Positions 2,904 through 9,645 of a stretch of DNA of 11,217 nucleotides are shown here, one piece after another. The DNA is from Candidatus Parcubacteria bacterium (GTDB lineage: Bacteria; Patescibacteriota; Patescibacteriia; UBA1558; GWA2-36-10): positions 1 to 11,217 of the forward strand of contig JABHIT010000090.1 in NCBI GenBank assembly GCA_018670855.1, given 5' to 3'. The notes under the pieces were generated by a model. The model had not been told where the DNA came from. It was given only the letters and a program-made list of their open reading frames with translations, and made no database searches. The translations under genes and the position numbers were made by a program. Numbering within the stretch: the first letter of the stretch is position 1; the number at the start of each line of letters is the position of its first letter.

Positions 2904-2934
2904 CCCTGTTAGAACTAAAATTTCTAATAGGGTT
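2904..2934. repeat. Palindromic element copy 1: CCCTGTTAGAA-ctaaaat-TTCTAATAGGG followed by TTTT
   Basis: 11-bp inverted repeat with one G.U. It is the left bracket of GC-rich patch A. A near-identical copy lies at 3908-3933. Confidence 0.6.
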
Positions 2935-2937
2935 TTC

Positions 2938-2966
2938 CCAGAAAATGAGCCGACCGTAGTCGGCTC
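2938..2966 (-). terminator. Intrinsic terminator for the minus-strand zinc-ribbon gene
   Basis: On the minus strand: GAGCCGAC tacg GTCGGCTC then AUUUUCU. It lies immediately after the hairpin GGTCTC ccta GAGACC, which contains the TAG stop. Confidence 0.45.
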
Positions 2967-2975
2967 AAGTGGTCT

Positions 2976-3218
2976 CTAGGGAGACCGATCAAAAAGCTTC
3001 TGGCAATTTGGGCATTGCAAGGGCCACTCTTTGATAGCTTGTCCGTTGTCTTGTCGCCAATTTAGCTCGACGTGACATCTTGGACAATGAGATTGGGAGT
3101 ACGTGGCATGTCTAGATGAGGAATACCCACACCTATCACAGCCCGTATACTTGGAGACAAGGACCCTGTCACATCCAGAGCAACAAAGAATCGGCTCGGC
3201 CAAACACAAGTGAGACAT
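2976..3218 (-). CDS. Small zinc-ribbon protein, 80 aa with four CxxC motifs, function unknown
   Basis: ATG at 3218..3216 is preceded by AAGGAG (3230..3225) with a 6-nt spacer. The protein is MSHLCLAEPILCCSGCDRVLVSKYTGCDRCGYSSSRHATYSQSHCPRCHVELNWRQDNGQAIKEWPLQCPNCQKLFDRSP. Its CxxC motifs are at residues 13-16, 27-30, 45-48 and 69-72. The track ORF 2976..3251 uses a TTG inside the predicted 5' UTR. A consensus promoter lies upstream and a terminator downstream. Confidence 0.5.
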   Translation of the reverse strand: MSHLCLAEPILCCSGCDRVLVSKYTGCDRCGYSSSRHATYSQSHCPRCHVELNWRQDNGQAIKEWPLQCPNCQKLFDRSP

Positions 3219-3280
3219 GTCTTTCTCCTTTTTTGGATAAAAAAAGAACAAGGTGTGCCCACCTCGTTTCCGGGAGTCTA

Positions 3281-6377: not shown

Positions 6378-6551
6378 ATGCTTAAACCATTTCTAAAAAA
6401 CAAAATAATAGCCAAAAAAGCTACTCTAGCCCAAGAGAAAAAAGTAGTAAAAGTAGCTATACTAACCCTAGAATGTTTTTATTTACCCTTGATGTGGCCA
6501 GAAAATATGCGCAAATCTATAGAAATACTGTTTAATCGAGATATAGTTTAG
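6378..6551 (+). CDS. Possible 57-aa lysine-rich small protein: MLKPFLKNKIIAKKATLAQEKKVVKVAILTLECFYLPLMWPENMRKSIEILFNRDIV. The locus could instead be a small RNA.
   Basis: The ATG is 21 nt downstream of the -10, and the leader is short and SD-less like other host genes. A TAG stop at 6549-6551 is followed by the terminator. AT-rich host-like composition. Below the track size cut-off. There is no family evidence. Confidence 0.25.
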   Translation: MLKPFLKNKIIAKKATLAQEKKVVKVAILTLECFYLPLMWPENMRKSIEILFNRDIV

Positions 6552-6572
6552 ATTTTATACAAAAATAATAAA

Positions 6573-6604
6573 CCCCGTCCAATAAATTGGACGGGGTTTT
6601 TGTT
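6573..6604. terminator. Bidirectional rho-independent terminator that serves the minus-strand MVP-like gene
   Basis: CCCCGTCCAAT aa ATTGGACGGGG then TTTTTGTTTG. On the minus side it is followed by TTTATTATTTTTG. The MVP stop TAA is at 6631..6629. Confidence 0.8.
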
Positions 6605-6628
6605 TGTGTGAATAGATAGAGAGACTAC

Positions 6629-9472
6629 TTAGTCTTGACTGGAGTCACCACTGGGACGACGAGCCTCACGACGTTCGGTAGTCTTCCCGAGGATATCGGT
6701 GATCTGGGCCAGTGGAGTACCAGCAAAAATGCCAGCCAACACTTCGGCCACACTCTTACCACCAAAGATAGCCATCGGGGCCATAGCCTCAGCAGTCCGA
6801 GCCATCACGTCCTTGTCCGAGAATTCCTGCAGAGCAGCAATCAAGTCCGGAGTGATAGCCGCGGCCTTATCGACGATAGCCTTGACTTCACCCTCGAGCT
6901 CGGCTTTTGCGACAGCTAGCTTCTGATCGTCTTCAGCCTTGGTGCGAGCCAGTTCGGCCTCAGCCACTTGATTGAGTCCTGCTTGAGCGGCCACCTCGGC
7001 TTCACGACGAGCAGTTGCTACAGCCACTTCAGCTTCACAACCAGCTTTCTTTTCAGTTTCATCAAACTGACGAACAGCGGTTGTGTGTGCCTGATCAGCA
7101 TCACGCTTGGCTTTGCGAGCAGCCTCTTCGGACACAAAACGAGCGTCAGCCTCCTTGGCGGCATTGGTCACCTTGGTCAGGAGAGTCTGCAAAGCACGTC
7201 CGGCAGCAGCTTCGCTGAGGTTGTGATTGTTGAGGGCAGTCTTGTCCTCTTCATTGGCAATATCACGACTGATCTGCTCAAGTGCCTTGGTGTTTTCCAA
7301 ACCACGACGAGCAGAGGCCAGCTTGAGAGTTTGTTCGACAGTCTCGTGCTGAGACTCTTCGAGCATTTGAGCGATATCACTATCACCAATCTCAATTTGA
7401 CTGAATTCAACATCGTAGATACGCATGCCGTTTTCGTCAAACAAGCGTCCAGGACGATCACCATTTTTAGCACCTTCAGCACCATCACCCGAAACACCAA
7501 GGATGGCATCTCGTAAAATGTCGATGTAGCCAGCATGCAACTTTTCGATGCCATGCTGTTTGACGACATTGGCAACCAGCGAACGCAGATGATCCGTCAA
7601 GAACTTGACGAAGTTCTCGACATCAAACCACTTGCCTTCTTCTCCTTCGAAGTTGACCCGATAAGAAATCGGGATCCGTACACGGACAAAATCCGATGTC
7701 TCAGCTTCGATTTCATCAGAAATCTTGTTGTTGAGAACACGTAGGAAAACATCCTTGTGCAGATGGTCATCTGTCTTGGGAGTGCCAGTAGAAAGCTCAA
7801 ACACCTCAGGCTCTTCACCATACTCCAAAAGTACAGTCTGAGGACCAGTGATAATCCGGCTCTTTCCAGTCCTGTCTACCAATTTGACAGCATAACCAGT
7901 CCAAACACAGATTGCAACTGCACCATCAAACTTGGTGTCCAGCTGGATAGTCCGCGGCGGAGTATGCTGCGTCTTGCGAGCAAACTCTTCGGCAGCCATC
8001 CCATCTTCCGGCTGTTCATCAAAACGCGTCGAGCGCTTGGCTGATATACGACCTCGAGAAATCATACTGGATCCATCAACAGAACCACCAAGACTCTCAA
8101 CCTCACTATAAACATTGCCGTCAGTAGCTGACATCAAGTTCAAGTTGTAGCGTAGAGCAGCCTCGTTGCCAGGATAAAGCAATCCAACCAAGTTGGGATT
8201 GAGTACCCTCCGAACCACGACTTGGTTACGTGGATCCGGTAAAAACATCTTGGGGCCCTCGACCATCTTGACTGCGCCAGTCTCACGATTGAGTACATAG
8301 CGAGCTTCTCCATCCGGAATAGCTACAGCATAATGAATCTGCTGATCACCATAAGTGATGATACTATGTTCAGGACGAGGATAATAAATCCGTTGCTTCT
8401 TGCCGGTGATGAAAAGCTCTTGGCCTTCCTCGTAGTCAGTGCCACCATCCGAATAATCCTTGATTACCTTGACGTAGACACCCCAGTGCTCTTCCAGTTC
8501 GATTGCTCGGAACTTTCGAGACTTGGACTTGCCAGCAAAAAAGCGTTGAGTCGGCGTCGGGAAAACTACTCGTGGTCCCTGAACATACTCTTTGTCCCCA
8601 GACTCATCGAGTAGGATACAGTATTCGAGCTGCTCCAGAGTGACGGCCTCACGGACATAGTTGCCCCGACCATCTTCAGGAACTACCTCAATACCAGTTG
8701 GTGGGATATAAAAAGAAGCTTCCGTTCCCTTGATGATCATCAGTTGACCAGTGATCAACTCAGGAATACCTTCGGGCTCTTCCTCGACCACTTCATCCTT
8801 GATCGGCGGAGTCGGAGGAGTATTGGTAGGAGTGGTCTCCTGATCATTGCCTCCGGTATCATCACCGGAACCACTTTCTTGATCAGTAGAGTCCCTATCA
8901 TTCTCTCCTGGAGCAGGACTCACTTGCTTGGAGCCAACCTCGTCTTCGGTTGTCGAACCAGTAGCTTTGATTTCTGTAGCTACGGTTTGAGGTTTGAGGA
9001 CTTGCTGTTCCCAGTTCTTGGTGGCCTCTTCTGAGTTGACTACCCGTACCATCAGGTACTGATTTGTCCTCAACACATGACCATCAATGACCTCGGCAGA
9101 CTGCCCAGGATAAAGAGGGAATGTTGCTGGACCAGCAATGTTGACTGTCCGACCCATGTCGAGTTCGACAGCATCTTGCTTGCCCTTGTTGGGGTGTTCG
9201 GGAATTCCACCCTTTTCTTTGGCTGGGTTATGAAGGACAACGTATTGTCCTTCGCGAGCTGTTGGGCAAGCTACAATTGCTTCTTGCATATTGGCCTGCT
9301 CAAAACGTCCAGTGGCCTTGTCATAGGTCATCAACTGATCTGTCTCACCAAGACTTTGCTTGCTGGGACCGACCACGACTTGTACGCAGCCATTGGATCC
9401 ATCCTGCACCAAGGCATACTCACCTTGAGCCAGGATGAGATCTTTGCTTGTTCGCAAGTTTCTCTCCTCCAT
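6629..9472 (-). CDS. Major vault protein (MVP)-like protein, about 947 aa. It has N-terminal MVP repeat domains, an SPFH/band-7-like shoulder and an Ala/Glu-rich cap-helix coiled coil.
   Basis: ATG at 9472..9470 is preceded by GAGG with a 6-nt spacer. The track start 9502 is a TTG. The GP-x-x-[YF]-x-P motif recurs at VVVGPSKQSL, IAGPATFPLYPG, VQGPRVVFPTPT, VEGPKMFLPDPRNQVVV and ITGPQTVLLEYGEEPEVFELSTGTPK. FPLYPG is identical to a human MVP repeat motif, recalled from memory. The N-terminus EYALVQDGSNGCVQVVVGPSKQS parallels human MVP [23 protein letters not shown]. Residues 585-700 look band-7-like (FVRVRIPISYRVNFE). Residues 700-880 are EA/AE-rich heptad coiled coil. GC is about 55% versus about 35-42% in flanking genes. 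Confidence 0.8.
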   Translation of the reverse strand: MEERNLRTSKDLILAQGEYALVQDGSNGCVQVVVGPSKQSLGETDQLMTYDKATGRFEQANMQEAIVACPTAREGQYVVLHNPAKEKGGIPEHPNKGKQDAVELDMGRTVNIAGPATFPLYPGQSAEVIDGHVLRTNQYLMVRVVNSEEATKNWEQQVLKPQTVATEIKATGSTTEDEVGSKQVSPAPGENDRDSTDQESGSGDDTGGNDQETTPTNTPPTPPIKDEVVEEEPEGIPELITGQLMIIKGTEASFYIPPTGIEVVPEDGRGNYVREAVTLEQLEYCILLDESGDKEYVQGPRVVFPTPTQRFFAGKSKSRKFRAIELEEHWGVYVKVIKDYSDGGTDYEEGQELFITGKKQRIYYPRPEHSIITYGDQQIHYAVAIPDGEARYVLNRETGAVKMVEGPKMFLPDPRNQVVVRRVLNPNLVGLLYPGNEAALRYNLNLMSATDGNVYSEVESLGGSVDGSSMISRGRISAKRSTRFDEQPEDGMAAEEFARKTQHTPPRTIQLDTKFDGAVAICVWTGYAVKLVDRTGKSRIITGPQTVLLEYGEEPEVFELSTGTPKTDDHLHKDVFLRVLNNKISDEIEAETSDFVRVRIPISYRVNFEGEEGKWFDVENFVKFLTDHLRSLVANVVKQHGIEKLHAGYIDILRDAILGVSGDGAEGAKNGDRPGRLFDENGMRIYDVEFSQIEIGDSDIAQMLEESQHETVEQTLKLASARRGLENTKALEQISRDIANEEDKTALNNHNLSEAAAGRALQTLLTKVTNAAKEADARFVSEEAARKAKRDADQAHTTAVRQFDETEKKAGCEAEVAVATARREAEVAAQAGLNQVAEAELARTKAEDDQKLAVAKAELEGEVKAIVDKAAAITPDLIAALQEFSDKDVMARTAEAMAPMAIFGGKSVAEVLAGIFAGTPLAQITDILGKTTERREARRPSGDSSQD

Positions 9473-9645
9473 TTTTTGCCTCACTTTTTTTGAGTACTTC
9501 AACGACTAGAATCCAACAAATTGAATCAGTGAAGATTGGAAAATTTAAAAAACCTCCTTTAGACTCGCTGTTTTGAAGTTATCTACGGATTACACCGTAA
9601 AAACGATCTCTATCTATAAATAAAATGAACCAAACCTAACGGCTG

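Follow-up and report, generated by a model that had tools for sequence, protein, structure and literature searches.

An MVP-like gene among leadered, Shine-Dalgarno-led accessory genes in an AT-rich and apparently leaderless Parcubacteria neighbourhood

The DNA analysed here is an 11,217-nt stretch of contig JABHIT010000090.1 (assembly GCA_018670855.1, Candidatus Parcubacteria bacterium), called the window at its full length. Between its AT-rich backbone genes lie four genes preceded by clear Shine-Dalgarno (SD) boxes, encoding a relative of the vault protein MVP, a Zn-ribbon protein, a 146-aa protein and a small peptide with GDPxGG repeats. The reading that we favour, with a probability of roughly 55%, is that such genes are accessory cassettes, self-contained, leadered and dependent on an SD, within a core that is leaderless and AT-rich, and that the composition of the MVP gene is being maintained and is not decaying. 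The conserved core (dam, typA, HI0933, GT-C, p152, rpoD and dnaG) would be AT-rich and expressed mainly from leaderless transcripts, and the cassettes, each with its own promoter, 5' untranslated region (5'UTR), SD, open reading frame (ORF) and terminator, would occupy variable spacers of this core; being leadered, the cassette genes would need an SD. The MVP gene, whose family circulates among bacteria and large phages, would have entered the Parcubacteria lineage horizontally before the window separated from its relative L004, probably also before the separation of L005, and would then have been inherited with its neighbours. Selection would keep its GC content at third codon positions (GC3) near 0.5, its codon signature and its SD in four lineages, the likeliest target being the efficient, SD-driven and high-level translation of a many-copy protein. 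The comparisons presented below show the composition, the SD and leaderless architecture, the synteny, the dS parity and the family of MVP; we infer selection as the maintaining force, as well as high MVP expression and cage assembly.

Composition and initiation signals

The seven backbone genes are all AT-rich, with GC contents and GC3 values of 29.5% and 0.22 (dam-like gene), 41.7% and 0.35 (typA), 27.8% and 0.23 (small transmembrane, or TM, gene), 38.8% and 0.39 (HI0933), 40.4% and 0.38 (SDR), 30.5% and 0.24 (orf57) and 34.5% and 0.33 (GT-C). Compared with them, the Zn-ribbon ORF (49.0%, GC3 0.51) and the MVP-like gene (50.5%, GC3 0.475, reaching 56% GC in 300-nt windows near its 3' end) are genuine outliers. 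The 146-aa gene (42.2%, GC3 0.37) is on par with typA and has backbone-like codon usage. The GDPxGG peptide gene (50.4%, GC3 0.42 over 43 codons only) owes its high GC to its Gly, Asp and Pro content; its synonymous usage is backbone-like, and its orthologue in locus L089 has a GC3 of 0.295. A preliminary description of the window had considered all four genes as compositionally foreign, at 50-57% GC by eye. This holds for the MVP-like gene and, roughly as to the figure, for the Zn-ribbon ORF; it does not hold for the 146-aa gene, nor for the GDPxGG peptide at synonymous sites. The picture of two homogeneous foreign patches has likewise to be abandoned: the patches are mosaics, the second one including orf57, which is AT-rich and devoid of SD, and the interval proposed for them (2904-9500) also takes in HI0933 and SDR.

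The SD boxes themselves were correctly described. They are found before 4/4 of the named genes (AAGGAG, 7 nt before the ATG of the Zn-ribbon ORF; GGAGG; GGAG; and GTGAGG) and before 0/7 backbone genes. The dichotomy between core and SD-led genes is real, yet only two of the four SD-led genes are compositional outliers.

Backbone genes differ from the SD-led ones by their promoter spacing too. In dam, typA, the small TM gene, p152 and GT-C, the ATG comes exactly 6 nt after the end of a -10-like hexamer, which supports the leaderless look already noted for typA and the dam-like gene. For typA, this hexamer belongs to a full promoter match (TTGACA-17-TACTAT), and in most relatives a TTGAC(A/C) box precedes a -10-like box lying near the ATG of typA. 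Such a spacing suggests that these genes are expressed from leaderless transcripts. Promoter matches of the Zn-ribbon, GDPxGG and MVP genes lie instead ~60-165 nt upstream, the implied 5'UTR of the Zn-ribbon gene being ~60 nt, and each of these genes has its own terminator. At the level of consensus matches, the patches thus carry their own promoters and terminators, as had been proposed.

To place these genes in the clade, metagenomes were scanned with typA, which yielded 80 related loci. Class statistics were computed on the ten loci nearest this genome (nine relatives and its own locus L001; ~135 ORFs; typA at least 79% identical), an ORF being called GC3-high when its GC3 exceeded the locus median by more than 0.15. 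An SD is present in 10/14 GC3-high ORFs against 6/121 others (Fisher p=1.7e-8); in a control window placed farther upstream, SD-like boxes are found in 1/14 and 4/121, respectively. Conversely, the -10-like hexamer located exactly 6 nt before the ATG is found in 20% of 119 backbone ORFs, for a background of ~4.5% at other distances, and in 0/14 GC3-high ORFs. The GC3-high, SD-led ORFs are mostly small and without Pfam family, and several are Cys-rich; an HD-domain protein and an adenylosuccinate-lyase-like gene also belong to the class. On these sequence criteria, the clade appears to have an AT-rich core of leaderless genes and, in the minority, GC-richer genes that are leadered and SD-led. 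That the SD is kept in all four MVP lineages of the candidate phyla radiation (CPR) suggests that ribosomes there use SD pairing, and the scarcity of SDs in the backbone would reflect leaderless architecture and not the loss of the anti-SD.

We know of no description of a coupling between initiation mode, composition and accessory status, and a literature search on SD and leaderless usage in CPR returned nothing relevant. Genomes mixing leaderless and SD-led genes are documented in Mycobacterium (PMC3898074; PMC4633059) and in a survey of bacterial leaderless genes (PMC3160421). As in those genomes, a -10 box directly precedes many starts, a leadered minority is SD-led and the ribosome evidently still recognises the SD. 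Unlike there, the two modes here also differ in base composition, in codon usage and in whether the genes are core or accessory.

Other GC-rich segments were noticed in the fetched loci. In the relative L012, GC-rich islets (52-60% GC; 1852-3390 and 5876-9069) lie on both sides of typA and contain an HD-domain protein, an adenylosuccinate-lyase-like gene and SD-led orphan ORFs; L089 likewise carries an SD-led, GC-rich gene for an HD-domain protein. A GC-rich segment of ~480 nt (56-59% GC) is located directly upstream of dnaG in this genome (L002:181-657) and in a relative (L013:19974-20453). The former holds an SD-led gene with 0 ATA, TTA or AGA codons, whose 158-aa product has an N-terminal TM helix; no protein similarity was detected between the two segments at E below 1e-4.

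Residence time and composition of the MVP-like gene

The two nearest homologues of the MVP-like protein are encoded in L004 (70% identity) and L005 (57%), in both cases beside the same pair of GT-C and p152 (the gene of a 152-aa protein) next to rpoD. MVP divergence runs parallel to that of these flanks, identities in L004 and L005 being in this comparison 72 and 61% for MVP, 76 and 51% for GT-C and 80 and 56% for p152. Between the window and L004, the synonymous divergence (dS) of MVP (1.29) is close to that of typA (1.33), rpoD (1.53) and p152 (1.63), GT-C being at 2.4. Both orthologues are SD-led (GTGAGGTG and AGAGGAGG) and share the compositional anomaly, with 51.5% GC and a GC3 of 0.52 in L004, 52.8% and 0.56 in L005, and 0.27-0.33 for the GC3 of the flanks. 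A further copy, 50% identical, is found at an unrelated locus of L088, an AT-rich CPR contig without SDs in its backbone (GC3 0.21-0.27); its MVP has a GC3 of 0.53 and AAAGGAG upstream. These four CPR MVPs are monophyletic in a neighbour-joining tree, with P0006 and P0007 as nearest outgroups.

The gene is nevertheless not part of the core. In L009, L013 and L014 (typA 84-90% identical), HI0933 directly abuts GT-C, and in comparison the window has an extra 4.5 kb comprising SDR, the GDPxGG peptide, orf57 and MVP. MVP is likewise missing from this neighbourhood in L011, and orthologues of GT-C are present in L004, L005, L009, L011, L013 and L014. L004 keeps MVP and orf57 (71% identity) and is devoid of everything from the small TM gene to SDR. 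According to GT-C and p152 distances, the window groups with L004, and L009, L011 and L014 with one another, L005 and L013 being separate lineages; a single MVP gain followed by relocation and loss, or else two gains, would fit this distribution. MVP is thus an accessory gene, long co-inherited with its neighbours without convergence on the composition of its host. Patchy presence, together with a family spread across phyla and viral contigs, makes it likely to be of horizontal origin at some point.

These observations bear directly on the model of the preliminary description, according to which both patches were recently acquired from higher-GC, SD-using donors, their flanks were domesticated and their imprint will ameliorate. 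In favour of such a model are the unusual GC and codons of MVP and Zn-ribbon, the patchy presence in relatives, the breadth of the MVP family in GC-richer phyla and the repeat-bracketed first patch, absent from every fetched relative; horizontal gene transfer is moreover common in Patescibacteria (PMC12455944). Accessory status and a likely horizontal origin can therefore be retained from it. Recency cannot, in the case of MVP, since L004 and L005 share its synteny, GC3 and SD, with dS on a par with the core flanks: conserved synteny with similar composition in relatives is precisely what had been named as refuting the model. Neither is a higher-GC, SD-using donor in sight, the nearest MVP outgroups having a GC3 of only 0.42-0.50 and a search of 5.8 billion proteins providing no donor homologue for patch 1. 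Host-like synonymous usage in the 146-aa and GDPxGG genes also argues against the model, and the only island-like marks of the window are the palindromes of patch 1 and a duplicated 44-nt terminator, with no mobility gene and, in L001 or L002, no tRNA that could serve as an anchor. Altogether, we consider this model improbable.

The regulatory flanks of MVP lead to the same conclusion. Conservation between the window and L004 extends over the promoter of the gene and ~80 nt at the start of its 165-nt 5'UTR, and the unrelated locus of L088 has a -35 region (TATTGACAAA) that resembles theirs, which argues against locally domesticated flanks; it looks as if the promoter travels with the gene. Elsewhere, the UTRs around the conserved SDs of the four CPR lineages have diverged. 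The three syntenic loci (window 9473-9674, minus strand; L004:2745-2990; L005:753-954) have in common a second SD-like box ~80-110 nt before the start (AAGGAGG, AGGAGG and AAGGAGG, respectively), not followed by any ORF, which may be a standby or regulatory element.

Is the composition of MVP decaying or maintained? GC3 is 0.475 in the window, 0.52 in L004, 0.56 in L005 and 0.53 in L088, for backbones at 0.22-0.39. The four genes share a codon signature: ATA accounts for 0-2% of Ile codons (28-43% in the backbone), TTA for 0-4% of Leu codons (17-37%) and AGA for 2-11% of Arg codons (37-39%), and G-ending codons of Lys, Glu and Gln reach 0.57-0.68 versus 0.14-0.30. T-ending codons are still the commonest in four-fold boxes. 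This anomaly is not intrinsic to MVP genes, as on 75 IMG/VR contigs MVP GC3 tracks the GC3 of the flanks, from 0.07 to 0.87; the mean offset between MVP and flanks is +0.06 to +0.12 in the four flank-GC3 classes of viral contigs, and +0.14 to +0.29 in CPR. The nearest outgroups are no higher in GC3 than the CPR copies, which therefore show no decay from such a source. Among the outgroup sequences, P0014 comes from a 48%-GC bacterium whose MVP has the composition of its flanks, and P0006 and P0007 are on phage-like contigs. Finally, a two-state model fitted on the backbone gives an S/W turnover kT of ~1.5 between the window and L004, that is a per-lineage decay factor of 0.46. From a starting GC3 of 0.5, neutral evolution would lead to 0.36-0.40, whereas 0.47 and 0.51 are observed. 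On balance, and with the reservation attached to such a model, maintenance of the MVP composition seems to us more likely than decay.

As to the force involved, we prefer selection for translation, the main rival being an external, phage-borne pool. Under that rival, an MVP cassette carried by Patescibacteria phages or mobile elements of ~45-50% GC would have been inserted independently into the ancestor of the window and L004, into L005 and into L088, and would be slowly ameliorating. The phage-like contigs of P0006 and P0007, the numerous viral relatives described below, the three different positions of MVP in CPR genomes and the promoter-like sequence common with L088 are all in favour of such a pool, to which the presence of the GDPxGG peptide and its leader at an unrelated locus of another genome can be added. 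However, no integrase, transposase or att-like repeat is found beside MVP at any locus. In amino-acid identity and in dS alike, MVP has diverged in parallel with its core neighbours, the viral relatives are only 35-47% identical, and with the above turnover a GC3 of 0.5 should already have dropped below the observed values. Repeated insertion from outside is, for these reasons, a rather unlikely explanation.

Several points weigh against maintained cassettes in a leaderless core. Taken alone, the window/L004 pair is compatible with neutral decay from an ancestral GC3 of 0.66-0.83, a value within reach of a high-GC donor. When synonymous changes are polarised by parsimony, GC-to-AT and AT-to-GC stand in a ~1:1 ratio, a weak indication since the outgroup is almost saturated and saturation itself predicts 1:1. 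Codon usage is backbone-like in typA, in rpoD and in rplI of L089; EF-Tu, GroEL and DnaK were sought in all fetched loci and only one distant DnaK was found. A preference for G-ending Lys, Glu and Gln codons is moreover not the usual expression-linked bias of AT-rich bacteria. More distant Parcubacteria loci do not display the association between SD and GC3 (2/13 versus 64/678), and the class statistics rely on simple first-ATG ORF calling in typA neighbourhoods. Lastly, MVP occupies different sites in L005, where it lies between rpoD and p152, and in L088, so that separate insertions from an external pool are possible.

A stronger version of the favoured reading would hold that two regimes are kept apart by selection, namely a leaderless AT-rich core and a leadered, SD-dependent accessory set avoiding A-ending codons, and that MVP builds cages in an ultra-small, host-dependent cell. 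We regard it as tentative and, as a whole, on the unlikely side. If true, composition would mark a translational regime, condition-specific or of very high output, and not the time since transfer, and the second set would consist of a vault-shell protein, small Zn-ribbon proteins and secreted repeat peptides.

Atypical islets are classically explained, after Lawrence and Ochman, by horizontal transfer followed by amelioration. The genes of the window resemble such islets by the atypical GC and codons of MVP and the Zn-ribbon ORF, by their patchy distribution and by their location in variable spacers between core genes. They differ from them by the lack of mobility genes and tRNA anchor, by an MVP anomaly left unameliorated across lineages at dS of at least 1.3-2, and by the coupling of the anomaly to leadered, SD-led as opposed to leaderless initiation. 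Atypical GC is routinely read as recent transfer; here this signal has outlasted speciation in three lineages at least, and probably in four, and composition-based calls of horizontal transfer in Patescibacteria could thus mislead. Gene finders already miss members of the SD-led, GC-rich class, such as the Zn-ribbon ORF.

Family and architecture of the MVP-like protein

The MVP-like protein matches Pfam MVP_shoulder (PF11978) over the whole profile (residues 581-697; E 1.9e-23; 83 bits for a cutoff of 25) and Vault_3 (residues 529-572; E 2.8e-10). Among PDB sequences, phmmer retrieved rat and other mammalian MVPs only (E 2e-9), the alignment spanning the shoulder and cap helix (rat residues 466-790), and no solved bacterial MVP homologue was present in the PDB searches. 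More than 4600 homologues were found in many phyla, with 43-50% identity to proteins of Eremiobacterota, Riflebacteria, Planctomycetota, Myxococcota and Bacteroidia.

An AlphaFold2 model was built from 42 homologues (mean pLDDT 58.9) and is good for residues 10-150 and 580-800. It is beta-rich at 10-150 (pLDDT 66-90 per 10-residue block) and, with low confidence, at 330-405, the middle MVP repeats being also modelled at low confidence. Helices predicted at 698-803 and 811-871 correspond to the long cap helix that follows the shoulder. Foldseek placed full-length rabbit, human and rat MVP first (E 1e-18, ~1000 aligned columns), then murine MVP R1-R7 (E 1.6e-5), and then SPFH cage proteins (E 4e-5 to 1e-3, shoulder and following helix). 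With a shoulder domain, an N-terminal repeat array and a long cap helix, the protein is a member of the bacterial and viral MVP family; by homology, it may form a vault-like cage.

Proteins of the SPFH/band-7 group (flotillin, prohibitin, HflK/C, stomatin) share the fold of the shoulder and following helix, and NCBI labels several MVP homologues as 'SPFH domain-containing protein'. They do not have the ~500-residue N-terminal region, which in the window protein aligns to MVP repeats R1-R7, and full-length MVP chains outscore SPFH folds by far.

Residues 157-235 (~80 aa) form an acidic, Thr/Pro-rich and disordered segment (pLDDT <35) without consensus in the alignment of the 42 homologues. In the window clade, the lengths of the three orthologues range over 928-947 aa, the other full-length homologues listed being of ~810-895 aa.

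To our knowledge, no bacterial MVP homologue has been shown to form cages. Our literature search returned no report of MVP in Patescibacteria. Bacterial and phage homologues have been described before (bioRxiv 10.1101/872010; bioRxiv 10.1101/2023.11.10.566534; Daly et al., 2013, PMC3762200), and the window protein resembles them by its N-terminal repeats, its PF11978 shoulder, its long cap helix, its fold match to mammalian MVP and its relatives on viral contigs. It differs from them by its host, an ultra-small member of the Patescibacteria (Parcubacteria), and by the clade-specific disordered insert. Compared with eukaryotic vaults, sequence likeness is weak and limited to the shoulder and cap helix. 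As far as its neighbourhood is concerned, and unlike in the eukaryotic particle, no TEP1/TROVE or PARP partner and no RNA recognised by Rfam lies near it: according to Pfam, none of the ORFs of the window has a TROVE or PARP domain, and no Rfam family reached its gathering score in the window or in the MVP loci L004, L005 and L088.

Full-length MVP relatives with 35-47% identity are encoded on at least 211 IMG/VR viral contigs, many of them of 100-500 kb. Large phages may commonly carry MVP, far outnumbering the two gut phages of the 2023 preprint. The contig of P0006 (L086) is 338 kb long and carries dozens of small co-directional ORFs together with dUTPase, NUDIX and PD-(D/E)XK genes. A full-length homologue in an ultra-small CPR bacterium, with sister copies on phage-like contigs, offers a compact setting for studying the function of bacterial and viral MVPs, and its own conserved promoter, long conserved 5'UTR and SD make the gene a ready construct for expression and cage tests.

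Patch 1, small genes and support for the window

In patch 1, the Zn-ribbon and 146-aa genes diverge from a 185-nt spacer and have one terminator each. The patch is bracketed by two copies of a ~30-nt palindrome of consensus CCC(T/G)GTTAGAA...TTCTAA(T/C)(A/G)GGG, whose full form was found only in this genome when 1.02 Mb of fetched loci were scanned. No homologue of the Zn-ribbon protein was found among the 5.8 billion proteins searched, and its ORF was not called by metagenome gene callers; the same search returned for the 146-aa protein one distant homologue (P0122, 37% identity), on another CPR-like contig. Neither gene is present in any of the fetched relatives. The corresponding typA-HI0933 spacer contains three GC-rich, SD-led ORFs unrelated to patch 1 in L013, AT-rich genes in L009 and a helicase in L014. 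This fits with the spacer being a high-turnover site and patch 1 a lineage-specific, near-orphan module of two genes, which is probably a recent insertion.

Integron cassettes were rejected as an identity for patch 1, as the window, L001 and L002 are devoid of integrase, the genes have promoter matches of their own and the palindrome occurs only 2-3 times. A prophage was rejected too: Pfam domains of the window ORFs include no integrase and no phage gene. Arms of the palindrome, CCCGTTAGAAATT and AATTTTCTAACGGG, are also located ~50 nt apart directly before the start of dnaG (L002:787-866), where they may represent either an operator-like site or a palindrome whose loop carries an insertion.

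The GDPxGG peptide gene has a promoter match (TTGACT-16-TATAAT) and a 5'UTR of ~75 nt. Its orthologue P0130 (43 aa, 71% identity) is encoded at an unrelated locus (L089 and L090), and the leader, SD included, is conserved between them: CCACAAACnCTGTCC(C)AAAAGGAG. According to these data, the small gene is genuine and moves together with its leader. Its GDPxGG repeats find matches in repeat units of large repeat proteins as well.

Not all insertions in this neighbourhood are GC-rich. The small TM gene is AT-rich, of the leaderless type and absent from L004 and the other relatives. A 44-nt direct repeat (D1 family, 70% identical; AATAATATATTAAAAAG and terminator hairpin) follows both typA (2327-2370) and the small TM gene (2859-2902), the latter being thus bracketed by a duplicated terminator.

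It could be objected that the GC-rich segments are chimeric or contaminant and that the small GC-rich ORFs are not genes; the uncalled and homologue-less Zn-ribbon ORF would agree with this, as would some GC-rich ORFs of relatives that resemble wrong-frame translations. However, the arrangement of the region and its junctions are the same in four independent ENA and JGI assemblies, with 98.0-99.8% identity over aligned blocks, which speaks against an assembly chimera. An identical MVP is encoded on four contigs of these databases (DNA compared for three) and is identical to an NCBI hypothetical protein of 'Candidatus Parcubacteria bacterium'. As to the genes, MVP is intact as well as conserved, the GDPxGG peptide has its orthologue, and the four CxxC motifs of the Zn-ribbon ORF come with an SD, a terminator and a promoter match of 12/12. 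An artefact is therefore very improbable. At the gathering threshold, Rfam detected tRNAs only, none of them in the GC-rich patches, which are thus not known structured RNAs.

The features of the window are collected in Table 1. The PMT_2 match of the GT-C-like protein is under the Pfam cutoff (21.9 bits for 26.1).

Table 1. Features of the 11,217-nt window
Feature	Position	Strand	Remarks
D12-class adenine methyltransferase (dam-like)	2-448	minus	cut off by window edge; backbone
typA/BipA	553-2331	plus	Pfam GTP_EFTU and BipA_C; backbone reference gene
Small membrane (TM) protein, 143 aa	2429-2860	plus	AT-rich, leaderless-type, accessory
Palindrome A, CCCTGTTAGAA...TTCTAATAGGG	2905-2937		left bracket of patch 1; direct reading and motif scan
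Zn-ribbon terminator match	2967-2946	minus	consensus match
Zn-ribbon ORF, 80 aa, four CxxC motifs	2976-3218	minus	weak, sub-threshold DZR/DUF7575 Pfam matches
Zn-ribbon promoter, TTGACA-16-TGnTATAAT	3281-3308	minus	sigma-70-type, 12/12 consensus and TG extension
146-aa protein	3404-3844	plus	'147-aa gene' of the preliminary description; SD GGAGG; no Pfam family
Intrinsic-terminator-like hairpin, 17-bp stem	3855-3894	plus	3' of 146-aa gene
Palindrome B, CCCGTTAGAAAAAATTTTCTAACGGG	3906-3935		right bracket of patch 1
HI0933-like flavoprotein	3975-5207	plus	Pfam; backbone composition, no SD
SDR	5228-6019	plus	Pfam; backbone composition, no SD
GDPxGG peptide, 42 aa	6075-6203	minus	hydrophobic N-terminus, three GDPxGG repeats; SD GGAG
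orf57, 57 aa	6378-6551	plus	AT-rich, no SD; convergent with MVP
Bidirectional terminator hairpin	6570-6599		common to orf57 and MVP
MVP-like gene, 947 aa	6629-9472	minus	GC-rich, SD-led; Pfam MVP_shoulder, Vault_3
MVP promoter, TTGACA-17-TAAAGT, and ~165-nt 5'UTR	9473-9674	minus	SD GTGAGG; consensus match
GT-C/PMT_2-like membrane glycosyltransferase, 549 aa in full	9735-11216	minus	5' end runs off window; synteny anchor

When the window is compared with the strain contig L001, 41 differences are found, 29 of which fall in a 950-bp tract of typA (726-1668). The remaining ones include short tracts in HI0933 (5138-5150) and SDR (5482-5507), and there are 0 differences in MVP (2.8 kb) and in both patches. 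The tracts of typA, HI0933 and SDR look like homologous-recombination imports into conserved core genes. To the left of the window (L001:13367-15669), after the dam-like methyltransferase gene comes an ORF longer than 447 aa and of very high AT content (GC3 0.18), which may encode a restriction or defence partner.

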